A DNA stretch of 64,000 nt, taken from a bacterium (GTDB lineage Bacteria > Sysuimicrobiota > Sysuimicrobiia > Sysuimicrobiales > Segetimicrobiaceae). How positions within the stretch are numbered: position 1 is the first letter of the stretch; every line of letters begins with the position of its first letter. Below the pieces are notes generated by a model that did no database searches, had not been told where the DNA came from, and was given only the letters and a program-made list of their open reading frames with translations. The stretch is from assembly GCA_035691305.1 (NCBI GenBank), contig DASSJF010000005.1, forward strand, positions 11,380 through 75,379. Direction: 5' to 3'. Shown piece after piece: positions 35,844 to 53,276 of the stretch. The position numbers were made by a program, and so were the translations under genes.

Positions 35844-36358
35844 CCTCATCACCCCTCCGAAGACTACACTCCGGAGACTACAACGGATGCGCAAGGCCAT
35901 TCCTTCCTGTTGAGAGTGCCCAAAAACGTGGCCGGCGGGCGCTCCGGGAGCGCCCGCCGTTAGACCGCCGGGCCTCGTTTCCCCCCGTTACGAGGCCCGG
36001 CCGAACAACGGTCTGCGTCGAGGCAGGTAGCGAAAACTGTTGCTGCGGACGGCGATTCGAAGAAACCCTATGAGCCCGACCGACAGCAGGGCCAACGGGA
36101 CTCCATATGCGATCGTCAACATCAGCCGGTCCGTGCTCCTTAACATCCCAGAGTTGAGTTTACTTGGCCCGGGCGGGAGCAGTAATCGGGCGATGGCCCT
36201 ATTGGGATCCAAAATCGGGTCTCCACCCGATGCCGGCGGGGGCCGGCGGCGGAGGGTCTCCACTTGCTCGCCGGCGTGGGCGATTATTCGGGGATTTGGG
36301 TGGGAATGAAGCGGTTAGAGGGTCACTGAGGCGCGACGGGGGTGGTGGCGAACTGGGC

Positions 36359-38173
36359 ATGCCGGTCCTTATGCTGGATTTCGCCGTAGGCATCCACGTC
36401 GCGATCGTGCTGCTGCTCCTCAGCAAGTACGTCGAGACGAGGTTGCCGTACGTGGTGTGGTGGACCGCCGGGATGGCCGCCCTGGCGGCCCGGTCGGCCA
36501 CCGAACTCACCCTGCTGTCCAACGGAGCGCCCGCGCCCTTCGCCCTCGTCCCGAGCATCCTCATCCTGGCCGGAGCCGGCTGCTTCCTCACCGGCTCCGT
36601 CGCACGGGACCCCAACACGCCCGGCAACATCCTCTTCGGAGCCGTCGGCTACGGCGGACTGCTCACCGCCGTCGCCGCGTTCTTCGTCCTCGGGCGGGGC
36701 CACGCCGACGTCGCGCGCGCGGTCGCCGGCATGGCCGCGGCGCTCGCGTTCGTCCTTGCGGGACGCAGCTATTACCAGGCGGAAGGCGCCGCCGATGACA
36801 CCGCGATTCGGACCATCTTCATCGCGCTCGTCGCGATCGGGGTCAATTTCGCCGGCTGGTCGTTCCTCCCGCGCACGACTTTCGACGCCGGGATCTCGGA
36901 GCTGCTCGGCGCACTGTGCGCGGCGACGTTCGGCGCAGGCGTGCAGCTCCGGTCGCTCGAGCGGCAGCGCGCGCTCGAAGTGATGAGCGCGATCAGCGCC
37001 GCGCTGCACCAGGCGAGCCACGTCGGCGAGATGCTCACAGACGTACTGCGCGCGACCGGCAAGATGGTGCAGGCGCACTCGGGCTGGGTGTTTCTCGAAC
37101 GCGGTGGGCGGTACGAGACCGCCGCGGCGTTTGGGCTGTCGGGACCGCTGGCGGACGGCGGCGGCGCCCTCCGCGACCTGGTCCCCGGCGGAGAACACGG
37201 CCGGTCCGCGCCCGCCGGATCCTGCCGCTGCCTCGAGATGCTGCGCGCCGGCCGGTTGCCGGCGCAGGGCGGCGTCGTGGACTGCGACCGGTTCGCCGAC
37301 GTCGGGGTGGCCCTCCGGCACGCGAGCGTGCCCCTGCGCACCGTGCGGACGCGGGGGGTGCTGAACCTCGTGCTCGTGCCCGGTCGGTTGTTTATGCGGC
37401 GGGAACTGGCGCTCGTGTCCGCGATCGCCACGCAGGTCAGTTTTGCGATCGACAAGGCCGAGCTGCTCGACGAGTTGCGCGACAAGGAGGCGGATCGGAC
37501 GGGGTTGATCCGGCGCCTCCTGAGCGCCCAGGAAGACGAACGCAAGCGCATCGCCCGGGAACTGCACGACGAAGCCGGCCAGTCGCTCGCCGGCCTGATG
37601 CTCGAACTGGAAGCGGCGCGCCTCGAGGACGCCCGCGGCACGGCCGTGACCCAGGAGACGCTCGCGCGCCTCAGGCGCCTCGCGGCGCGCACGGTGGAGT
37701 CCGTGCGGGCGCTGATCTACGACCTCCGGCCGGCCGTCCTCGACGACCTGGGGCTCGTGCCGGCGCTGCGGTGGTACACGCAGAGCCAGATCGCCGCCCG
37801 CGGCCTGGACGTGCGCCTGAGCGAGCGGCTCGGCAGCGAGCGGCTCGACGCGACGCTGGAGACGACGATCTTCCGCATCGCGCAGGAGGCGCTTTGGAAC
37901 GCCGTCAAACACGCCGCCGCGTCCCGCATCGACGTGGACCTCTTGCGAAAGGACGACCGTATCGTGCTTCGCGTGCGCGACGACGGGCGCGGAATCACCG
38001 CGGCGGCCGGCGCCCCGGCGCACCGGGGGCGGGTCGGCGTCGGACTCGGCGGCATGGTGGAGCGGGCCGCGGCCCTCGGCGGCACGGTCCAGGTGGCCGC
38101 GCGGCCGGAGGGCGGCACCGAGGTGCTCGCCGAATTTCCCGCCGCCGCGGTCCGCCGGGGACAAACCGCGTGA
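36359..38173 (+). CDS. sensor histidine kinase (membrane domain - GAF - HisKA_3 - HATPase_c; NarL/LuxR-partner type)
   Basis: Start at the internal MPVLMLD. About 6 TM helices, a GAF-like middle, RIARELHDEAGQSLAGL H-box and a GLGGMVERAAALGG G-box. Confidence 0.85.
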   Translation: MPVLMLDFAVGIHVAIVLLLLSKYVETRLPYVVWWTAGMAALAARSATELTLLSNGAPAPFALVPSILILAGAGCFLTGSVARDPNTPGNILFGAVGYGGLLTAVAAFFVLGRGHADVARAVAGMAAALAFVLAGRSYYQAEGAADDTAIRTIFIALVAIGVNFAGWSFLPRTTFDAGISELLGALCAATFGAGVQLRSLERQRALEVMSAISAALHQASHVGEMLTDVLRATGKMVQAHSGWVFLERGGRYETAAAFGLSGPLADGGGALRDLVPGGEHGRSAPAGSCRCLEMLRAGRLPAQGGVVDCDRFADVGVALRHASVPLRTVRTRGVLNLVLVPGRLFMRRELALVSAIATQVSFAIDKAELLDELRDKEADRTGLIRRLLSAQEDERKRIARELHDEAGQSLAGLMLELEAARLEDARGTAVTQETLARLRRLAARTVESVRALIYDLRPAVLDDLGLVPALRWYTQSQIAARGLDVRLSERLGSERLDATLETTIFRIAQEALWNAVKHAAASRIDVDLLRKDDRIVLRVRDDGRGITAAAGAPAHRGRVGVGLGGMVERAAALGGTVQVAARPEGGTEVLAEFPAAAVRRGQTA

Positions 38174-38856
38174 CGGACGCGGGCGCCGTGACCGGCGAGA
38201 GCCCCGGCAAGATAACGGTCATCCTCGCCGACGATCACGCCATCGTGCGGGAGGGCGTGAAGCGCATCCTGGCCGGCGAGCCGGACATCCAGGTGGTGGG
38301 CGAAGCGTCGGACGGGGCCGAGGCGGTCGCCCTCGCCAAGCAAGTACACCCAACGGTCGCGGTGCTCGACATCAGCATGCCTCGGCTCGACGGCATCGAG
38401 GCGACGCGGCAGATCCGCGACGCGGTGCCGGACACGCACACCATCGCGCTCACGATGCACGCCGACGACACCTACGTCTTCCAGCTCATCAAGGCCGGCT
38501 CGGCCGGCTGCGTGCTCAAGCACGATGCGGCGCCGAACTTGATCGAGGCGATCCGATCGGCCGCGCGCGGAGAGGCGTTCCTCTATCCGCAGGCGGCGAC
38601 CGCGGTCGCCGAGGACTACCTCAAGCGCGTCGAGCACGGCGAAAACCGCGAGACCTACGACGGCCTCACCGCCCGCGAAAAGGAGATTTTGACCCTGATC
38701 GCCCACGGCGCGACCAACCAGGAGATCGCAAAGCAGCTGTTCATCAGCGTCAAGACCGTGCAGACGCACCGCGCCCACATCTTGGAGAAGCTCGAGCTCC
38801 ACGACCGCACGCAGCTCGTGCGGTACGCGATCCGCAAGGGGCTCATCGAAGCGTAG
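38170..38856 (+). CDS. response regulator, LuxR/NarL family
   Basis: GTG overlaps the kinase stop (GTGA). Receiver domain (ILADDH...VLDISMP) plus a LuxR helix-turn-helix. The upstream part of the 646-aa track ORF is an antisense artefact. Confidence 0.9.
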   Translation: MTDAGAVTGESPGKITVILADDHAIVREGVKRILAGEPDIQVVGEASDGAEAVALAKQVHPTVAVLDISMPRLDGIEATRQIRDAVPDTHTIALTMHADDTYVFQLIKAGSAGCVLKHDAAPNLIEAIRSAARGEAFLYPQAATAVAEDYLKRVEHGENRETYDGLTAREKEILTLIAHGATNQEIAKQLFISVKTVQTHRAHILEKLELHDRTQLVRYAIRKGLIEA

Positions 38857-44591: not shown

Positions 44592-45698
44592 CTAGGCGCG
44601 CGCGAACCGGTCCGGACGAAACGGCGCGAGGCGCGGGTCGGGACGGCCGCCGAGGATCTCGGCGGCCGCCGCGGTGGCCAGAAACGGCGCGAGCGTCACG
44701 CCGCTGTGGGTGACGATCGCGTAATATCCGGAGAGCCCGCCCTGCGGGCCGATGACGGTCCGGCCGTCCGCCGGCATCGACCGAACGCCGAGGCGCGCAG
44801 ACTCCACACCCGTCCCGGCGAGCCCCGGTAGCAGTTCGGCCGCACGCCGCACCAGTTCGGCCGCCAGGTCAGGCGGCGCTTCGGACGCGCGCGACGCCGT
44901 GACCGCATCGTCGACTTCGTCCGCCTGGATCAGCACCCGTCCCCCGCCGTCGGGACGAAACTGGCACCTCGGCGCGTGGACGACGCGCTCGAGCCGCGTA
45001 AGCGCCGGCGGCGTGATCGCGAGTACGCTGCGGTTCGGCGCCATCGGAAGACCGGCGCCGGCCGAGGCGCCGAGGTCGCCGGCCCAGCGGCCCGCGCAGT
45101 TCACGACGACGTCCGCCTCGTGGAACTCGCCGGAGTCGGTGCGCGCGCCGGTGACGCGGTTGCCCTCCCGCCAAATCTCGCGGACCCCCGTCCCGGCCTC
45201 GACGCGCGCGCCGGCAGCCGCGGCCGCCCGCGTCATCGCGTAGACGTAGACCGTGGTCTCGATCCACGCTTCGTCCGGATAGAACGCGATCGCCGTGTCG
45301 CGGAGCGCGCCTGGGGGAAGATCCGGCTCGAGCGCGAGGGCCCGGGCCGCGTCGATCTCCTCCGCGGCATAGTCCCAAGCGCGCAGCCGCTCGACGCGCG
45401 CGCGGAGCGCGACGCGCGCGGCATCGCCGGCCGCGATGTGGATGTTACCACCTCCGTGCCACCACGGCGCGGCGCCGAATTCGGCCCGCAGCGCGGCGTG
45501 GGCGCGCATGCCTTCCACGTTCAGGTCGTGGTACTCGCGCGGCGTCTTCTGGTTCGAGTTGGTCCAGGCGAAACTGGCGGCGGAGGTCCCGCCGCAGAGC
45601 CGGCCGCGGTCGAGAAGCGTCACAGCGGCGCCTCCCCGCGCAAGACGATAAGCCGCCGACGCACCGATCACGCCGCCGCCGACAACAATCGCACGCAT
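44592..45698 (-). CDS. FAD-dependent oxidoreductase (DAO family; glycine/D-amino-acid oxidase-like)
   Basis: 368 aa. N-terminal AIVVGGGVIGASAAYRLA dinucleotide-binding motif. Confidence 0.8.
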   Translation of the reverse strand: MRAIVVGGGVIGASAAYRLARGGAAVTLLDRGRLCGGTSAASFAWTNSNQKTPREYHDLNVEGMRAHAALRAEFGAAPWWHGGGNIHIAAGDAARVALRARVERLRAWDYAAEEIDAARALALEPDLPPGALRDTAIAFYPDEAWIETTVYVYAMTRAAAAAGARVEAGTGVREIWREGNRVTGARTDSGEFHEADVVVNCAGRWAGDLGASAGAGLPMAPNRSVLAITPPALTRLERVVHAPRCQFRPDGGGRVLIQADEVDDAVTASRASEAPPDLAAELVRRAAELLPGLAGTGVESARLGVRSMPADGRTVIGPQGGLSGYYAIVTHSGVTLAPFLATAAAAEILGGRPDPRLAPFRPDRFARA

Positions 45699-45756: not shown

Positions 45757-47694
45757 TTACGGGATCACGGGCGGGGGCGAACCTTGATCCGGCGGACCGG
45801 TCTGATTGGACGGCGGCGTCTGCGGCGCCGGTCCGGCGGGCGGCGCGGGCCCCTGGCTGACGACCAAGTCGACCGCCTCGTTCGGGGAGGCCTCGGCGCC
45901 GGCCGCCCGGCCCTGACCGATTACGACGCCCGCGGGAGTCCGATCGTCGTACGTGTAGCTGATGCGTCCCGTCCGGAAGCCGGCGGAGCGCAGCGCGGAC
46001 TCCGCCTGCGCGAGCGATGCGCCGGTTACGTTCGGGACGACCGTGGTGTCCGGAGACGGCGCCGGCGCGCCCAGCGGCGTGCCGGAGGGACTCGACGGCT
46101 GATCGGCGCCTCGGCTCACCACGATGTTGATCAATGACTTGGCCCCCAGATGGTCGCCTGGATTCGCGGACTGCGACTGGACCATGCCGGACGGCACGTG
46201 GTCGTCGTGTACGTAGCTCGTGCTGCCGAGCCGCAGTCCGGCGGCCCGCAACTTCCGCGCGGCCGCGTCGGCTGAGACGCCGCGGACATCGGGCACGACC
46301 CCCGACCCCTGGCTGACCACCACGTTGAGCGCCGCGCCCTGCGCGAGCGCGGTTCCCGGGGGCGGATCCTGCGCCAGGATCACGTCCGGGGCCACGGTCC
46401 CGTTCTGTCTGCCCGTGACGGCAAGCCTGATCTTGTTGGACGCCGCGACGTCCTGCGCGGCCGCCAGCGTCCGGCCCACGAGAGCCGGCGCCCGGATGGC
46501 GGCCGCGGTTTGCGCCGCCGGACCGCGACGGTTCGCGGACTGGTAGCCCTGGTAAGCCGCGAAGGCGAAGAACCATAAGCCGACCAACCCGACGAGGACG
46601 ATCGTAAGCTGCGGCGCGATCGCCTGGCGACGGTGCCGCGACGACAAGATCGGCGTTCGTGCGGTGTCCGACAACACGCGCCCGCGACCGAGCGTCGCGA
46701 GACGGGCCGTCGCGTCGCGGGCGATCGCGCCGTCCCGCTCGGCCCCCGCCGCGCGCGGCTGCCCGCCGGCCCGAATCGGCAGCGGGACGGTCTTCGACGC
46801 GTCACGGCCGAGCCGCGCGTAGATCCGCCGGAGGTTCGACGCGAGCTCGGCCGCGCACACCTGGCGCTCCTCCGGCGATTTGACCAGCAGGCGGCGCACC
46901 AGCGCCACGGTGGCTTCGGATAGACCCGGACGGATCCAGTGCAGGTCGTATGGCGGCTCGTGTATGTGCCGCAGCGCCATAGCGACCGGGGTCTCGGCTT
47001 CCTCGAACGGCAGACGTCCGGCCAGCATCTCGTACAGGACGACGCCGAGCGAGTACTGGTCCGACGCCGGGCCCGCCTGCTGCCCGGCCGCCTGCTCGGG
47101 CGAGATGTACTGCGTGGACCCGGGCACGATCCCGGCGCGTGTGTGTGACGTCGAATCGAGCGAACGGGCGATGCCGAAGTCCGCGACCTTGACGTGCTCG
47201 TCCGCCGTCAGGAGGATGTTGTGCGGCTTGATGTCGCGGTGGACGACGCGGCGGGAGTGGGCGTACGCAAGCGCGTCGGCCACTTCTGCCGCGATGCGGA
47301 CCGCGGTTCCCTCCGGAAGCTGCTCCCGCCGGCTCACCAACTCGCGAAGCGTCCCGCCGTCCAAGAACTCCATCGCGATGTAGGGCGTCGAGTCGGCCTC
47401 GCCGTGCCCGTACACTCGCACGATGCGTGGGTGCACGAGCGCGCTCGCCGCCTCCGCCTCCCGGCGAAACCGTTGCCGGAATTCCTCGTCGCGCGCGAGG
47501 TGCTCGGCCGGCACTTTTACGGCGCAGGGACGGTTGTGGGCGCGGTCCCAGGCCCGGTAGACCGTGGCCATGCCGCCGGTGCCGATGACCTCGCGCAACT
47601 CGAACCGTCGGTCGAGCACGCGCGGCTCCCGGCCGCAGGCGCCCGCCCCGGGGAGCGGCCCATCGAACGCCGGCTCGTTGTTGTGGATCGCCAT
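45757..47694 (-). CDS. Ser/Thr protein kinase with three extracellular PASTA domains (PknB-like)
   Basis: 645 aa. Kinase subdomains (GTGGMATVYRA, HRDIKPHNILL, DFGIA), a TM helix, then three PASTA repeats (VVPDVRG..., VVPNVTG...). Confidence 0.9.
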   Translation of the reverse strand: MAIHNNEPAFDGPLPGAGACGREPRVLDRRFELREVIGTGGMATVYRAWDRAHNRPCAVKVPAEHLARDEEFRQRFRREAEAASALVHPRIVRVYGHGEADSTPYIAMEFLDGGTLRELVSRREQLPEGTAVRIAAEVADALAYAHSRRVVHRDIKPHNILLTADEHVKVADFGIARSLDSTSHTRAGIVPGSTQYISPEQAAGQQAGPASDQYSLGVVLYEMLAGRLPFEEAETPVAMALRHIHEPPYDLHWIRPGLSEATVALVRRLLVKSPEERQVCAAELASNLRRIYARLGRDASKTVPLPIRAGGQPRAAGAERDGAIARDATARLATLGRGRVLSDTARTPILSSRHRRQAIAPQLTIVLVGLVGLWFFAFAAYQGYQSANRRGPAAQTAAAIRAPALVGRTLAAAQDVAASNKIRLAVTGRQNGTVAPDVILAQDPPPGTALAQGAALNVVVSQGSGVVPDVRGVSADAAARKLRAAGLRLGSTSYVHDDHVPSGMVQSQSANPGDHLGAKSLINIVVSRGADQPSSPSGTPLGAPAPSPDTTVVPNVTGASLAQAESALRSAGFRTGRISYTYDDRTPAGVVIGQGRAAGAEASPNEAVDLVVSQGPAPPAGPAPQTPPSNQTGPPDQGSPPPVIP

Positions 47695-47726
47695 AGGTTA
47701 CGCCGTCGCTGCGTCGCACATGGCAG

Positions 47727-47750
47727 GCGCAGTGTCTCCTGCGCTTTTTT
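47727..47750 (+). terminator. intrinsic-terminator-like hairpin with T6 tract (GCGCAG-TGTCTC-CTGCGC-TTTTTT), orphan on plus strand
   Basis: Seen at 47727-47750 in the divergent region between the PASTA kinase start and a small plus-strand ORF. No plus-strand gene lies upstream for about 3 kb. Confidence 0.35.
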
Positions 47751-47824
47751 CCCGTTTTGAGGGGTGGCCGTTTGGGCGCGGCGCCCGTCATACGGGGCCG
47801 AGTCCGGGGCAAAATAACCGTGCC

Positions 47825-47995
47825 ATGCGGCTGCCGAACGGAGTGTTGGGTATCGCCGTCGCCGGCGTGCTGATCGTGGGGCTGGCGGCCGATCTGGTCT
47901 TACCCGAGTCGGGCGTCTCGGCGGCGCTCGCGCGGGTGCTGGGGGCCTCGTCGATCGGGTTGGCCGTCTGGACGCTCGCGAAGATCGCGCGCTAG
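47825..47995 (+). CDS. small hydrophobic hypothetical protein (56 aa)
   Basis: MRLPNGVLGIAVAGVLIVGLAADLVLPESGVSAALARVLGASSIGLAVWTLAKIAR, two predicted TM segments. Weak evidence only. Confidence 0.25.
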   Translation: MRLPNGVLGIAVAGVLIVGLAADLVLPESGVSAALARVLGASSIGLAVWTLAKIAR

Positions 47996-48053
47996 TCCGG
48001 CCGCCGTCGCTTCGAGCATTCCCCCCGAAGCACGACGCTCGGTTTGTGAGGCC

Positions 48054-48725
48054 TTACGCTTCCGTGACGATGCCGCGCCGGATCGCGTAGCGGACGAGAT
48101 CGGTCTGGTTGTGCAAGTCCAGTTTGCGCATGAGGTTGGCGCGGTGCACTTCGGCGGTGCGGGGGCTGATGCCGAGGCGCTGGCCGATCGCGCGGTGGCC
48201 GTGTCCTTCCGCGGCGAGGTGAAGTACCTCGCGCTCCCGATTCGTGAGCGTAGCGTACCCATCCGACGGCCCGGGATCGGCAGGGGCGGAGTCGGCGTAC
48301 ACCGCGATCGCACGGCTGGACAGCGAAGGGCTGAGATAACGATGGCCGGCCGCCGCCGCACGCACGGCCTCGACGAGGTGCGCCGACTGCGACGCCTTGA
48401 GCACGTACGCCGCGGCACCGTTGCGAAGCGCTTCCAGCACGTACGGCTCACTCGCGTGCATCGAGAGGATGACCACCTGCGTGTCGGGGTACTCTTTGCG
48501 GACACGGCGTGTGACCTCGAGCCCGGTGATGCCGGGCATCATGAGGTCCGCGATCAGCACGCGGGGCCTCGACTGCGCGACGAGGTCAACGGCTTCGAGG
48601 CCGTCTCCGGCCTCGCCGAGGATTGAAAAATCCGGTTCGGCCTCCAAGACGGCCCGGAGGCCCTGACGGACGACGTGGTGGTCATCCGCGAGGACGATCG
48701 TGACAGGCGTCAGTGCGCTTGTCAC
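48054..48725 (-). CDS. response regulator, LuxR/NarL family
   Basis: 223 aa. Receiver domain (VLADDH...LIADLMMP) plus LuxR helix-turn-helix. Start overlaps the upstream kinase stop. Confidence 0.9.
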   Translation of the reverse strand: MTSALTPVTIVLADDHHVVRQGLRAVLEAEPDFSILGEAGDGLEAVDLVAQSRPRVLIADLMMPGITGLEVTRRVRKEYPDTQVVILSMHASEPYVLEALRNGAAAYVLKASQSAHLVEAVRAAAAGHRYLSPSLSSRAIAVYADSAPADPGPSDGYATLTNREREVLHLAAEGHGHRAIGQRLGISPRTAEVHRANLMRKLDLHNQTDLVRYAIRRGIVTEA

Positions 48726-50929
48726 GGCACCTCGGCGGTCGTGGTAGGCAGCGTGGCGGTGATCCGTGTCCCGGCACCCCGGCCGGTTTCAACGGTCAGG
48801 CGCCCGCCCACGAGCAACGCCCGTTCCTTCATGCCGACAAGACCGTTCGATTCCACGCGACCGGGGTCGAAGCCGCGGCCGCCGTCCTCGACCTCAACCG
48901 ACACCGCACCCCCCACCGCCCAGACGCGCAGCGTCACCTCGGAGACGCCGGCGTGCCGCGCGACGTTGGTCAAAGCTTCCTGTGCGATGCGGTAGGCCGC
49001 CGTCTCGACGCCGGCGCCGAACCGCCGGTTCAGCCCAGATTGAGTGAAGGCGACGCCGACGCCGGTCTGTGCCTGGTACCGCTCGACATGCCACTGTAGC
49101 GCGGGCAGCAGCCCGAGATCGTCGAGCACCGCCGGACGCAGCTGCAGCGAGATGTCGTGCACGCGCATCATCAGGTCCGACACGACGTCGCGTGCGTTCT
49201 GCAAGCTCTCCTCCACGCGCCTCTCGGCCTGCACCGGCAGCGCGTCGAGGGTCAGCTTCAGTCCGGTCAGCGCCTGGCCGATCTCATCGTGTAGCTCGCG
49301 CCCGATCCGCCGGCGCTCCGTTTCCTGAATCGCCACAAGGTACGGGATCGCCTCGGAGACCGACGGCGTCGCCTGCGCCGGCGCGTCCACAGACCGCGTC
49401 TCCTCATCGTCCGAGAGAGGCGCCGACGTCCCGCCGCCCACCGGGAGCCGCGATTTCCACGCCTCCCACGCCGGGTTGCCGGCGGGAGCCGCCGCGAGGG
49501 CGGGCTGCGGCCGCATCGACGCGCCGAAGAGTTTGACGAACAACGGCACGGCGTCCGTGGTGGCGATGATCTGCCCGAGCGCCTGCACGATCTTCGGGTC
49601 GTAGTCCCGACCGGCCCGCGCCTGTATCCGCGTGAGCGCGCCTTCGGGCGTGAACGCCGGCCGGTGTGGCCGCGCCGAGCAGAGGTCGTCGTAGGAGTCG
49701 ACGACACGAATGATCCGTGCGCCGACCGGGATCCGATCGTCTTTCAGGCCGTCGGGATACCCGCGTCCGTCGTAGTCTTCGTGGTGGGAGCGTACGCACT
49801 GCGCGACGCGGCCCATGCCGGGCAGCCGCTCGATCACCGCGGCGCCGAGCGCGGGATGCCGTTTTATCAACGCTTCCTGCGCGTCGGACAGCACGTCCGG
49901 CGTCGCTTCGAGGTCGCGCCGCAGCAGCATCATGCCGAGATCGTGCAACTTCGCCGCGAGCCAGACGAGTTCGATTTCAGACTCGGACAGGCCCATCCGC
50001 CGCGCGAGGCGCTCCGCCCACCAGGCGACACGTTCCGACTGCTCGTGCATGAACGGAGACAGCCCCTCGTTCGTCTCGACGAGGGACGAGAGTATCGTCG
50101 TGATCTGCCGCCGTTGCCTGCCGAGCATCCGCGTCTGACCCCAGAAGATCACCAAGACGGAGATCAGCAGCGGGATGACCCAGAACGGGTGGATGGTCGC
50201 GAGCAGCCCGGCCACCGCGCCGAGCAGCAGCGTGACGGCGTACCCGGCGGAGCTCTCTCGCAAAATCTGCAGCCAAAGCTCGAAGGCACCCGTCCGCCTG
50301 CGCAGCGCCGACCACGTCGACACGAGCCAGGTATTGACCAGCATATGGACGAGGCCCGCACCTATCGCGGCGAGCGACAACCTGGCCTGAGCGGGCAGCG
50401 ATCCCAAGTCCGCCCACAGACGGTGGAATAGGATGATGACGAGACTCCACGTCACCACGTACTGCGCCACGTTGAAGATAATCGCGGGAGCGCTGAGCTG
50501 ACGGCGACGCCGGCTGACGAATTGCGCGACGACGGTGCCGGCCGTCGTGGGAATGAGCGCGAGATGCACCGGGAAGCTCAGCAGGATGGCGAACGATGCG
50601 CCGCTGCCGAGTGCGAGGAAGACCTTCCGACCGAGCGGAAGGTGATAGATGCCGCCGAGCGCGACGGCAATCGTGGCGGCGATCAGCAGGGCCGCCACGC
50701 CGGCCGGTGCGCCGGCGGCAACGGTCGGGAGCGCGCCGCGCGCCACCAACGGCGGCGTGAGGTATAGGCCCGCGGCGGCCGCGACCGCCGCGAGGACCAC
50801 GAAGCCTTCGAAGGAACGGCTGGGCGCGGAAGCTCCGGTGAAGAAGCCCCTCGCGCTCTGCGCGTTGGCGGCACCGACCGCCGGTTCGTTACGTGAAGAC
50901 CGGCGACGTAGGTTGCGGATCCGGCTCAT
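48722..50929 (-). CDS. multidomain sensor: 7TM membrane domain - HD-GYP phosphodiesterase domain - HisKA_3/HATPase histidine kinase
   Basis: 735 aa. About 7 N-terminal TM helices. HD-GYP signature (KLHDLGM ... HHEDYDGRGYPDGL). Then RIGRELHDEIGQALTGL H-box and IAQEALTNVARHAG...VEDGGRGFDP ATPase motifs. Confidence 0.8.
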   Translation of the reverse strand: MSRIRNLRRRSSRNEPAVGAANAQSARGFFTGASAPSRSFEGFVVLAAVAAAAGLYLTPPLVARGALPTVAAGAPAGVAALLIAATIAVALGGIYHLPLGRKVFLALGSGASFAILLSFPVHLALIPTTAGTVVAQFVSRRRRQLSAPAIIFNVAQYVVTWSLVIILFHRLWADLGSLPAQARLSLAAIGAGLVHMLVNTWLVSTWSALRRRTGAFELWLQILRESSAGYAVTLLLGAVAGLLATIHPFWVIPLLISVLVIFWGQTRMLGRQRRQITTILSSLVETNEGLSPFMHEQSERVAWWAERLARRMGLSESEIELVWLAAKLHDLGMMLLRRDLEATPDVLSDAQEALIKRHPALGAAVIERLPGMGRVAQCVRSHHEDYDGRGYPDGLKDDRIPVGARIIRVVDSYDDLCSARPHRPAFTPEGALTRIQARAGRDYDPKIVQALGQIIATTDAVPLFVKLFGASMRPQPALAAAPAGNPAWEAWKSRLPVGGGTSAPLSDDEETRSVDAPAQATPSVSEAIPYLVAIQETERRRIGRELHDEIGQALTGLKLTLDALPVQAERRVEESLQNARDVVSDLMMRVHDISLQLRPAVLDDLGLLPALQWHVERYQAQTGVGVAFTQSGLNRRFGAGVETAAYRIAQEALTNVARHAGVSEVTLRVWAVGGAVSVEVEDGGRGFDPGRVESNGLVGMKERALLVGGRLTVETGRGAGTRITATLPTTTAEVP

Positions 50930-51157
50930 CGACTACGCAGCCCCCCCACTTGGGGGTTCTGCCCGCCGCGGAGGCCCCGTAGACTGCCGCGGCACCGCTG
51001 TGGCGCGGCTCCCGCCCAAACTCACGGTACCGGCCCTCGTGCCGGTGTTGCTGGCGGGTCAATCGGGCGCGAATCTGAGGGGCGTCAGGGTACGCACCCC
51101 GATGGGGGTGGGTGCCGGCCGCGGCGCACTACAGAATCGATGTCAAGCGCGCAGCGA

Positions 51158-51180
51158 AACCGGCCGTGTCTCAGGGCCGG
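51158..51180 (-). terminator. 7-bp GC hairpin (ACCGGCC...GGCCGGT) spanning the kce stop codon, followed by UUUCG on the minus strand
   Basis: Inverted repeat read from the sequence. The stop codon lies in the loop. Confidence 0.3.
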
Positions 51181-51959
51181 TCGCTTAGCGCGACGACCTG
51201 CCTGTGGCCGTGACGGCGAACCATCTCCACGGCCGATGCGACCAACTGAGCGTTGTCTCGAGCGCGGCCGCCGCCCACCAGCTGCAGGGTATCCTCCAGG
51301 CCGACCCGGATGTCCCGGTCCACGTTGAGCGCCGCGTCGAGCACCGCCCACGTCGCGACGCCCTCGCCGTGATGCAGCCTGGGGAGCCAAATCTCGGCGC
51401 GATCGAGTTCCGCATCGATGGCCGCCGCATCGTCCAGCGCCCGCGCCGGCTCGAGCGGCCGGGCTTCAACGAGGATGCGCAGCGACCAGGCCGCGAGCCC
51501 GCTCGCGCCGAACGTCCGGGCGTCCTCGACGGACCACAGCCCGGCTTCGATGCCGATCCCGCGGCGAATCAGCGCCGCGCACACGTCGGCGGCGCCGGCT
51601 TCGGAGAAGTTGACCGACGCGAAATCGGGGAGCACCGTCCACGATTCGACGAGCGCAACGCGGGCCCGGGGATCGGGCGCCATCCATGCGCCGGTGCTGA
51701 CCCCCACCGGGACGCCGGGACACGCCGCCCGGATCGCGGCGAGCGCGGCGGCGTGCGCTCCGGCGTCGAGGGTCTCCGCGCCGGCACGATCGCGGGGGTG
51801 GACGTGGAGGGCCGCGGCGCCGGCGGCGACGGCCGCACGCGCATCGCGCGCCGTCTCCTCCGGTGTGAGCGGCACGCCGTCGTGATCGGCGCGCCGCCGG
51901 CCGCCGTTGAGGCAGGCTTTGATGAGAATTGGACGGCCGACGGACTTCGTAGCCGTCAC
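51171..51959 (-). CDS. 3-keto-5-aminohexanoate cleavage enzyme family protein (BKACE/DUF849)
   Basis: 262 aa. GTG start. TIM-barrel BKACE pattern (ILIKACLNG, HVHPRD, VSTGAW). Confidence 0.7.
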   Translation of the reverse strand: MTATKSVGRPILIKACLNGGRRRADHDGVPLTPEETARDARAAVAAGAAALHVHPRDRAGAETLDAGAHAAALAAIRAACPGVPVGVSTGAWMAPDPRARVALVESWTVLPDFASVNFSEAGAADVCAALIRRGIGIEAGLWSVEDARTFGASGLAAWSLRILVEARPLEPARALDDAAAIDAELDRAEIWLPRLHHGEGVATWAVLDAALNVDRDIRVGLEDTLQLVGGGRARDNAQLVASAVEMVRRHGHRQVVALSDRP

Positions 51960-52432: not shown

Positions 52433-52467
52433 CGTTTGAGCGATCCGCCCCGCCCGTTTGAGTAATC
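52433..52467 (+). promoter_or_regulatory. tandem direct repeat CCGCC(T)CGTTTGAG(C/T)(G/A)ATC x2 (22-bp spacing) upstream of the orphan response regulator gene; candidate regulator binding sites
   Basis: cgtttgagcgatc (52433-52445) and cgtttgagtaatc (52455-52467). Downstream lie a perfect 10-bp palindrome CACGTACGTG (52507-52516) and a hairpin CGCCGCG-N9-CGCGGCG (52521-52543). Confidence 0.35.
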
Positions 52468-52562
52468 GGCGGGAGATTTGGCGCAAGTGCGACGGCGGTC
52501 TGTCCGCACGTACGTGTGTACGCCGCGTCTGCGAAACGCGGCGCGTGGGCACACCTCACCTG

Positions 52563-53276
52563 ATGGACCATGCCAAGTTCGGCCTGCATGCGCTAAAGCC
52601 GCGCCTTCGGGCCGTGCCGCGCCCGGATCCGATCCGGGTGTTTCTGATCGATCCGCAAGTGCTGCTCCGCCACGGCCTCCGGCTGCTGTTCGGTTCGGAG
52701 GGCGACATCGACATCGTCGGCGAGGCCGGGGCGGCGGCGGGGGCGATCGACGATGTCGCGGCCGCAAAGCCCGACGTCGTCCTGATGGACATTCCGGCGC
52801 CGGCCGCGGACGGGATCGGCGCCATTCGCGCGATCAAAGCCCGCTGCCCGAACGCGCAGGTGCTGGTGCTGACCGCGCAGTCGGACCAGGAAGTGTTTCG
52901 CGAGGCCGCGGCCGCGGGCGCCGTCGGCTACGTGTTGAAAGACATCTCCGCCACGAACCTGTCCAACGCGATTCGCGCCGTGCAGTCGGGCGCCACGATG
53001 ATCAACCCGGTGTTGGCCCGGCAGATGGTCGAGGGTCTCGCCCGGGACGAGGCCGCCGCGGCAGTCGGCGCGCCGCGGCGGCCGCACCGGCTCACCCCGC
53101 GCGAAATCAACATCCTCGTCGAAGTCGCCCTCGGCATGAGCGACAAGGAGATCGCGGTCAAACTGGCCGTGTCCGAGTCGCGCGTCAAGAACTGCCTGCG
53201 CGCGCTGTACAGCCGCCTCGACCTCCGCAACCGCGCGCACGCCGCGGCCTTCGCCGTTCGGAGGGGCCTGGTCTAA
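52563..53276 (+). CDS. response regulator, LuxR/NarL family (orphan; no kinase adjacent)
   Basis: Start at the internal MDHAKF. Receiver (VFLIDPQ...VLMDIPAP) plus LuxR helix-turn-helix (LTPREINILVEVALGMSDKEIA). Confidence 0.85.
   Translation: MDHAKFGLHALKPRLRAVPRPDPIRVFLIDPQVLLRHGLRLLFGSEGDIDIVGEAGAAAGAIDDVAAAKPDVVLMDIPAPAADGIGAIRAIKARCPNAQVLVLTAQSDQEVFREAAAAGAVGYVLKDISATNLSNAIRAVQSGATMINPVLARQMVEGLARDEAAAAVGAPRRPHRLTPREINILVEVALGMSDKEIAVKLAVSESRVKNCLRALYSRLDLRNRAHAAAFAVRRGLV

Follow-up and report, generated by a model that had tools for sequence, protein, structure and literature searches.

HD-GYP is the least understood of the three domains that metabolize cyclic di-GMP (c-di-GMP) and is normally seen as a C-terminal output; the main text of a survey places it typically at protein C-termini (bioRxiv 10.1101/2021.11.05.467447). 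The closest described architectures are MASE9-HD-GYP and MASE9-HD-GYP-GAF-GGDEF proteins (T. maritima TM1467, S. venezuelae HdgA/Vnz_24090), in which, according to the same main text, a MASE9 membrane domain stands directly before HD-GYP; in the GAF-GGDEF version HD-GYP is internal. Only in 2026 was an HD-GYP domain, that of the Desulfovibrio vulgaris transmembrane protein DvhD, shown structurally to be a non-catalytic c-di-GMP switch (PMC13090378). Here we analyze a gene of a 64-kb window (the whole stretch of DNA studied) whose 735-aa product joins a MASE9-type membrane domain, an internal HD-GYP domain and a HisKA_3/HATPase_c kinase core, and which overlaps the gene of a NarL/FixJ-family response regulator. 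On balance we lean toward an HD-GYP domain that is mainly a regulatory or sensing module (for nucleotide or metal) of a two-component kinase, and not an enzyme.

An original prediction, made from the letters of the window, had delimited both open reading frames (ORFs) and proposed the order transmembrane helices, HD-GYP, HisKA_3/HATPase_c; both ORFs lie at the stated coordinates, and the domain order holds. The features are as follows, with AlphaFold2 abbreviated AF2 and its predicted local distance difference test pLDDT.

48722..50929, minus strand: gene of the MASE9/HD-GYP/HisKA_3/HATPase_c sensor kinase, 735 aa, ATG start, stop codon 48722-48724 (ORF, Pfam, homologous clusters)
50828..50929, minus strand: Arg-rich cytoplasmic N-terminus, residues 1-34, motif FTGxSxASRxFE (alignment A1, columns 30-46)
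50129..50827, minus strand: MASE9-type integral membrane domain, residues 35-267 (hydropathy, AF2 helices with pLDDT 70-85, MASE9 scores)
49550..50128, minus strand: stalk helix, continuous with the last transmembrane helix, and HD-GYP domain, residues 268-460 (HD_5, PDB matches, AF2, Foldseek)
50039..50041, minus strand: codon CAG of Q297, at the position of the PmGH metal ligand H189 (CAC or CAT, His, in orthologues)
49931..49933, minus strand: codon ATG of M333, at the position of the HDxGK lysine (PmGH K225)
49349..49549, minus strand: Ala/Pro/Gly-rich variable linker of ∼67 aa, residues 461-527, predicted disordered (AF2 pLDDT 25-38, identity)
49064..49348, minus strand: HisKA_3 dimerization and phosphoacceptor (DHp) domain, residues 528-622, H-box ELH547DEIGQ, His codon 49289-49291 (Pfam, DesK matches)
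48725..49063, minus strand: HATPase_c catalytic ATP-binding (CA) domain, residues 623-735, N-box QEALTN655, G1 box D682-G-G-R-G-F, G2 box GLVGMKERA (AF2 pLDDT 75-90)
48722..48725, minus strand: 4-nt GTGA overlap of the kinase stop TGA and the regulator start GTG (sequence)
48054..48725, minus strand: gene of the NarL/FixJ-family response regulator (REC and GerE helix-turn-helix), 223 aa, GTG start (Pfam, NCBIfam, co-divergence, residues)

HD-GYP fold and catalytic site

The middle domain matched HD_5 (PF13487) at 115.2 bits (cutoff 27.2; residues 292-447, profile positions 12-170 of 170) and HD at 51.4 bits. Its motifs are kept (H329-D330 and H382-H383-E384-D-Y-D387-G-R-G390-Y391-P392), and H358, D411, D414, R420 and R423 are also present. 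HMMER matched the domain to the PDB sequences of V-cGAP3 (2.7e-28), PA4781 (6e-22), PmGH (1e-19) and DvhD (7e-18; entries 5z7c, 4r8z, 4mcw and 9rbz). An AF2 model of residues 257-460, built from a 60-sequence alignment, reached a pLDDT of 89.6. Foldseek aligned it best with DvhD (TM-score 0.83), then with PA4781 (0.81) and PmGH (0.79-0.81), with E-values of 3e-12 to 4e-10 for 9rbz, 4r8z and 4mcw, whereas the PgpH HD domain was a weak match (E 3e-3, TM-score 0.59, vs. 3e-12 and ∼0.8 for HD-GYP structures). The domain as modeled is a genuine HD-GYP fold, with an HD core and a C-terminal GYP subdomain.

PmGH residues were mapped onto the window protein by HMMER alignment and gap-free motif register. 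An independent alignment (A2) agrees with it: the near-invariant positions H41, K87 and D155 there fall on residues 297, 343 and 411. The same search supplied 98 further HD-GYP domains for comparison. In the lines below the PmGH residue is given first.

E185, F293: Y/F, predicted binuclear, subgroup position
H189, Q297: substituted
H221 and D222, H329 and D330: kept
K225, M333: substituted
K235-P-G237, T343-P-D345: altered
H250, H358: kept
H276 and H277, H382 and H383: kept
G-Y-P, 390-392: kept
D305, D411: kept
D308, D414: kept
R314 and K317, R420 and R423: kept

The full set of residues essential in PmGH is not present: H189 is replaced by Q297, K225 by M333 and D183 by S291, and the rest are kept. 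In PmGH, Ala mutants of H189, H221, D222, K225, H250, H276, H277 and D308 lose activity, as does that of D183 (E/D-T-G subgroup), and D305A lowers it (PMC4159591). The change of D183 to S291 was dropped as a sign of inactivity, since Ser also stands there in V-cGAP3, which is active. The K225 position holds Lys in 94 of the 98 other domains vs. Met in all 11 sequences of the window's clade, and the H189 position holds His in 84 of the 98. KPG, whose contacts to the nucleotide are made by main-chain atoms, is T343-P-D345 here, with K in 91 and G in 85 of the other domains; the RxxK motif reads R420..R423, a form common in the sample. Q297 represents a single third-position codon change specific to the window lineage. 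A sequencing error was rejected as its source, since Gln is fixed in 11/11 population variants from separate assemblies. The HD-GYP signature, first described as complete, thus holds for HD and HHExxDGxGYP, but Q297, M333 and TPD stand in place of H189, K225 and KPG. Because of these three changes, hydrolysis by the window protein is doubtful, and it is probably weak or absent.

Relatives of the protein fall into three clades. In clade A (the window's; 11 sequences) K225 is Met and KPG is TPx throughout, and D305, which is Asp in 91 of the 98 other domains, is Gly in 9/11; only the window protein and P0002 keep the Asp, the window lineage having lost the H189 equivalent instead. Clade B (∼48% identity) is near-canonical, with K at the K225 position in 8 sequences and Q or E in 3, KPG largely kept, and D or E at the D305 position. 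In clade C (34-41% identity) HHE has become Q[A/G/T/S]E, and RxxK and KPG are lost; from these residues, its HD-GYP domain is clearly non-catalytic. A motif census found all four kinase boxes (H, N, G1 and G2) undamaged in clades A, B and C, and in these same clades a GerE-type regulator gene overlaps the kinase 3′ end (loci L008, L009, L010/L011, L013 and L014). The labile part in evolution is the phosphodiesterase site, not the kinase. Because the site degenerates variably beside an invariant kinase and regulator, we infer that what is conserved for the domain in this architecture is a role other than c-di-GMP hydrolysis.

Unrelated hybrids of HD-GYP and kinase domains were also found. P0073 (HD_5-GAF-PAS-HisKA-HATPase) and P0107 (HisKA-HATPase-GAF-HD_5) are the only other sampled HD-GYP domains with Met at K225, and they carry further lesions (HD to HT or YD, HH to HR, D305 to T). 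A third hybrid, P0145 (REC-HD_5-GAF-HisKA_3-HATPase), has a canonical site. In this sample, 4 of 6 lineages with a kinase-fused HD-GYP domain have degenerate sites.

The original prediction implied a sensor that both hydrolyzes c-di-GMP and drives a phosphorelay. Such a bifunctional protein would be an active phosphodiesterase for c-di-GMP or cyclic GMP-AMP (cGAMP) under MASE9 control, perhaps a 'trigger' phosphodiesterase that gates the kinase through turnover of its substrate. We regard this as doubtful, and as possible mainly for the near-canonical clade B. HD, H358, HHE, DGxGYP, D411, D414, R420 and R423 are intact under an HD_5 score of 115 bits, and the best PDB sequence match, V-cGAP3, is an active cGAMP phosphodiesterase that shares the SPY/F motif. 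Some RpfG proteins can do without the H189 equivalent, and VCA0681 is active despite missing a PmGH-essential residue (PMC4212101). In the window protein, however, Q297 and M333 are substituted together and KPG is TPD, H189A or K225A kills PmGH (PMC4159591), and Lys at K225 is the rule in the comparison set (94/98). Kinase and regulator persist even though the D305 equivalent is gone from most clade-A relatives and HH from clade C, and the independent hybrids P0073 and P0107 are degenerate as well. The kinase and regulator motifs are intact; with these substitutions and a clade-variable site, a sensor with both activities is the less likely reading for the window protein.

Several points weigh against our preferred reading of a regulatory, non-enzymatic domain. 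With the equivalents of HD, H250, HHE, D305 and D308 all present, the protein may still assemble a binuclear site. Nor does activity always require the H189 equivalent: it is absent from RpfG-type proteins, of which the Lysobacter RpfG is active, and one of three V. cholerae HD-GYP proteins without a PmGH-essential residue is still active (PMC4212101). The K225-equivalent lysine contacts a c-di-GMP phosphate in DvhD (PMC13090378), and by analogy M333 could impair not only catalysis but also binding of the nucleotide. Kinase fusion alone does not imply degeneracy, clade B and P0145 being near-canonical. No GGDEF gene lies within the 64-kb window, and the tether of 67 aa, modeled as disordered, would offer no obvious signal path.

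Membrane domain, linker and kinase core

Hydropathy analysis of residues 43-267 gave 7-8 hydrophobic segments, close to the ∼7 transmembrane helices first proposed, and AF2 models eight helices (35-57, 75-94, a short one at 107-118, 121-143, 147-174, 180-211, 215-246 and 248-288). The short helix adjoins 121-143, with which it may form an intramembrane hairpin, and the last transmembrane helix (248-288) runs unbroken into the HD-GYP domain. MASE9 is described, in the main text of the survey, as eight predicted transmembrane segments of which two short ones form an intramembrane hairpin (Galperin & Chou, bioRxiv 10.1101/2021.11.05.467447), and the window protein has this pattern, with eight segments including the short pair directly before HD-GYP. 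Positive-inside residues are found at the N-terminus (RRR), at 140-143 (RRRR) and at 210-212 (RRR). Together with hydropathy and the AF2 model, this distribution fits a predicted topology with both termini inside, six full spans and a re-entrant pair.

The 735-aa protein matched MASE9 (PF20972) over residues 121-264 at 22.3 bits, below the cutoff of 24.3. This cutoff is passed by the orthologues P0007 (25.9 bits), P0008 (31.0 bits) and P0009 (30.7 bits), which are 70-73% identical to the window kinase, with MASE9 profile positions 60-199 of 203 covered. No 7TMR-HD match was found by Pfam at E≤0.1 on the 735-aa protein. The 7TM-HD receptor module of the original prediction, which would be PgpH-type, was abandoned on this ground together with the weak structural match of PgpH (TM-score 0.59); the scores of the orthologues favor MASE9 as the identity of the membrane module instead.

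The N-terminal motif FTGxSxASRxFE (residues 28-42) is kept in the alignment of clades A and B. The NCBI model of the protein, HET7263181.1 (on a 117-kb contig, with the generic name 'HD domain-containing phosphohydrolase [bacterium]'), has 692 aa vs. 735 aa in the ORF, and we favor the long start because the motif is conserved. Several metagenome gene calls, like HET7263181.1, appear from the same motif to start too late.

In the kinase core, HisKA_3 (residues 538-602; 49.2 bits, cutoff 24) and HATPase_c (residues 641-730; 44.9 bits, cutoff 26.4) both score above their Pfam cutoffs, in agreement with the core and ELHDEIGQ H-box first noticed, and the core matches DesK in the PDB sequence search. 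The motif set of HisKA_3-class kinases (H547, N655, D682-x-G-x-G and GLVGMKERA) is complete and conserved family-wide. Between the core and HD-GYP lies the long, variable linker, which is predicted to be disordered; for these reasons a rigid helical relay is less likely, and docking, release or dimerization is more plausible. The full-length AF2 model (pLDDT 63, predicted TM-score 0.38) is too weak for inter-domain contacts. A clade-A-specific WEAWKSR motif forms a short predicted helix (∼486-495) inside the linker, and it could be a docking or membrane-association element.

The low-complexity, poorly conserved junction (461-527) and the existence of kinase-less MASE9-HD-GYP relatives (P0143 and P0144, 455 aa each, from the HMMER census described below) are what one would expect if a MASE9-HD-GYP gene and a HisKA_3 kinase gene had been joined by a frameshift or an assembly error. 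This explanation, which the original prediction had raised against itself, was rejected, and we give it almost no weight. A single ORF is present in 11 population variants (98.6-99.7% identity; separate Logan, ENA and NCBI assemblies) and in about 18 clusters of 42-82% identity with the same HD_5, HisKA_3 and HATPase_c content from independent metagenomes; syntenic loci on long contigs carry one uninterrupted kinase gene, and linker length is maintained in all clades.

Within clade A, within clade B and between A and B, identity is 78/66/54% for HD-GYP, 88/63/57% for DHp, 80/59/59% for CA and 55/28/18% for the linker (458-527). HD-GYP is constrained as strongly as the kinase core, and such conservation points to purifying selection on the domain and not to a relic. 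A relic would bind no ligand and would be a folded spacer or dimerization platform relaying the MASE9 signal, with all sensing in the membrane. Its merits are that clade C keeps the architecture without the HH ligands and RxxK contacts, that M333 removes the lysine that contacts c-di-GMP in DvhD, and that the last transmembrane helix is continuous into HD-GYP in the AF2 model. It is nevertheless unlikely: GYP, HHE, HD and RxxR are invariant in clades A and B, conservation at the level of the kinase core is hard to expect of a mere spacer, and the disordered tether after HD-GYP would not carry a mechanical signal.

Invariance also bears on the idea that the His/Asp cluster binds iron, with occupancy or oxidation state, not nucleotide, regulating the kinase. 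Clades A and B show no variation at D330, H358, H382 and H383, the ligands of the second metal site, whereas K225 and KPG drift, and the di-iron or tri-iron centers of HD-GYP domains are redox-active and metal-dependent (PMC4159591). However, the GYP and RxxR nucleotide contacts are equally invariant and clade C lacks the HH pair, and we consider a metal or redox sensor very improbable.

For the regulatory HD-GYP domain that we prefer, the following mechanism can be proposed. A MASE9-type membrane receptor (eight hydrophobic segments, both termini inside) would lead through its last transmembrane helix straight into the cytoplasmic HD-GYP domain, which would act as the regulatory input or transducer module. 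Judging from the retained second metal site (D330, H358, H382, H383) and GYP/RxxR contacts, this domain probably binds metal and perhaps also c-di-GMP or a related cyclic dinucleotide. It would be joined by a flexible tether of ∼67 residues to the HisKA_3/HATPase_c core, and its ligand-dependent docking, release or dimerization might control the kinase, by analogy with ShkA domain liberation and the DvhD stalk switch. The core is then predicted to phosphorylate the NarL-type regulator of the overlapping gene, and the phosphorylated regulator would control transcription.

A bolder version can be entertained only tentatively. The HD-GYP domain would be the cyclic-dinucleotide receptor (c-di-GMP or cGAMP) of a new kinase class, in which messenger and MASE9 signal are integrated into regulator phosphorylation. 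The clades would then form a series from an active 'trigger' phosphodiesterase (B) through a binding-only receptor (A) to a ligand-independent scaffold (C), and the K-to-M change in three independent hybrids would mark the conversion of enzyme to sensor.

Partner regulator and gene neighborhood

The 223-aa regulator matched Response_reg (93.8 bits) and GerE (67.1 bits) in Pfam and NarL/MctR/UvrY-like models in NCBIfam, and all REC signature residues are present (D14, D15, D60, S88 and K110). It co-diverges with the kinase, with 84% identity in L008 (kinases 76%) and 64% in L010 (kinases ∼49%). GAGG is found 5 nt 5′ of the regulator GTG, and the 4-nt overlap recurs in L009, L010 and L013. The GTGA overlap suggests translational coupling of kinase and regulator, and the coupled NarL-family regulator of the original prediction is retained at that strength.

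The region 5′ of the kinase gene is as follows.

50930..51170, minus strand: intergenic region of 241 bp, presumed promoter region (sequence)

A sigma-70 and terminator scan of 47500-51400, which is uninformative at 70% GC, found no consensus promoter or terminator, and an Rfam scan found no RNA family in the window. No second paralogue of the clade types of this kinase family is present in the window; the only other match (∼37.5-38.1 kb) is an unrelated HisKA_3 kinase. After that kinase (∼36164-38856, plus strand; tblastn 37508-38140, 37% identical to the core of the 735-aa kinase) comes a REC-GerE regulator; at its 3′ end the long ORF 36916-38856 takes in an overlap, out of frame, with the genuine gene of this regulator.

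Upstream of the kinase gene by 241 bp and on the same strand lies a gene of a beta-keto acid cleavage enzyme (BKACE; 51171-51959, minus strand), whose position is kept in L008 and L009. An orphan NarL-type regulator, RR2 (REC and GerE; 52458-53276, plus strand), lies ∼1.5 kb upstream of the kinase operon in divergent orientation; its N-terminus is possibly over-extended, and its gene is syntenic in clade A (L008 3261-4049, L009 2942-3721). Clade B has an extra regulator, a second, convergent GerE-type gene right after the cognate one (L010/L011 8821-9492, minus strand) that is a 60% paralogue of the cognate regulator and suggests a duplicated or branched output. A conserved second regulator was rejected, since RR2 of the window and the extra regulator of clade B share only 27% identity and are unrelated.

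Directly downstream of the regulator, relatives carry an MscL gene (L008 8846-9328, L009 8609-9079). The window has none; a 360-bp gap (47695-48053) takes its place, with a family-less 143-aa ORF (47564-47995, plus strand). Next come a PknB-like Ser/Thr kinase with three PASTA domains (45757-47694, minus strand) and a DAO-family FAD oxidoreductase (44592-45698); L008 shows synteny of these two genes with the kinase operon. In clade C, the kinase-regulator pair of L013 (1-3964, minus strand) is divergent from small hypothetical genes ending in T2SSF (type II secretion/type IV pilus platform), which could be regulatory targets.

The sole exception seen without an adjacent regulator is P0014 (L012 176-2344). 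In this protein Arg occupies the H189 position, Glu stands in place of K225 and Gln in place of R314, and 12 extra residues follow the KPG loop; it may be drifting toward loss of function. Clade-A and clade-B genes share metagenomes on different long contigs (JGI 3300022557, L008 and L011; ENA ERZ27245795, L009 and L012); they could be paralogues in one genome or orthologues in co-resident relatives.

Comparison with known systems

The fusion was first noted as uncommon, and HMMER, run exhaustively on 1.84 billion representative proteins at 50% identity, bears this out: besides fragments, only ∼7 clusters match end to end (P0004, P0134, P0136, P0137, P0138 and P0142; P0145 has another architecture). 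GTDB species representatives yielded no close relative, at the sensitivity of a single-protein query, only HD-GYP or kinase matches of 29-35%. The nearest relatives outside the family (P0021-23, P0028 and P0042) share 30% identity over ∼51% of the query, and the kinase-less P0143 and P0144 share 38% over residues 26-460. MASE9-HD-GYP relatives have a canonical catalytic site, whereas the window protein has Q297, M333 and TPD. Its output, a HisKA_3/HATPase_c kinase with a partner regulator, is not mentioned in the main text of the MASE9/HD-GYP survey (bioRxiv 10.1101/2021.11.05.467447). A search of the literature, with incomplete coverage, found no description of an HD-GYP/histidine-kinase fusion.

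If c-di-GMP is sensed, one protein of an uncultured soil lineage would connect the level of a second messenger directly to a phosphorelay, and an internal HD-GYP domain in a kinase would extend the receptor idea to two-component signaling. If it is not, the fusion would be a rare but ordinary shuffling of known signaling domains. The three natural states of the site (canonical, partly altered and fully degenerate) form a set for separating hydrolysis from sensing residues. A specialist would see a neat, testable case more than a surprise.

CckA, RavS (PMC6707612) and SgmT are c-di-GMP-regulated histidine kinases, and SgmT reportedly uses a degenerate c-di-GMP-metabolizing domain (GGDEF) as receptor. 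We know of no HD-GYP domain in ShkA, CckA, RavS or SgmT, and the window protein is likened to them on predicted c-di-GMP binding. In ShkA, c-di-GMP activates the kinase by liberating a domain (PMC6969517, PMC7010744); this ligand-driven release of a tethered domain couples the second messenger directly to a phosphorelay (PMC6969517).

Degenerate regulatory HD-GYP domains are known in HnoD, ECA3548 and DvhD (PMC13090378 for DvhD). In DvhD (PDB 9RBZ/9RC0), which does not hydrolyze c-di-GMP, binding induces rearrangement of the preceding stalk helix and dimerization (PMC13090378). DvhD lacks the metal ligands (HD to SQ, HH to MN) and keeps the lysine, whereas the window protein keeps HD and HH but has neither the lysine nor the first His; clade C does lose HH, together with RxxK. 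DvhD serves here as an analogy, and the window protein is not placed in its class. The signal of DvhD runs inside-out to a periplasmic protease, and a kinase domain, which the window protein has, is absent from it.

RpfC/RpfG and other REC-HD-GYP regulators likewise link two-component signaling to HD-GYP, and some RpfG proteins lack the H189 equivalent. Their logic is reversed: a kinase controls a separate HD-GYP output, whereas here HD-GYP precedes the kinase and the output binds DNA. The 7TMR-HD protein PgpH, a c-di-AMP phosphodiesterase (PDB 4S1B/4S1C), also has a multi-span N-terminus followed by an HD-superfamily domain, but no GYP subdomain, which the window protein has. DesK-DesR, NarX-NarL, LiaS-LiaR and MctS-MctR share the DHp/CA core and the REC-GerE partner; they have other input modules, no HD-GYP domain and normally a helical connection to DHp, in contrast to the predicted disordered one here. 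These comparisons indicate that (i) every domain comes from a known family, and the combination, HD-GYP upstream of a HisKA_3 kinase in one polypeptide, appears new; and (ii) the clade-wise decay of the phosphodiesterase site, recurring in independent kinase hybrids, also appears to be new.

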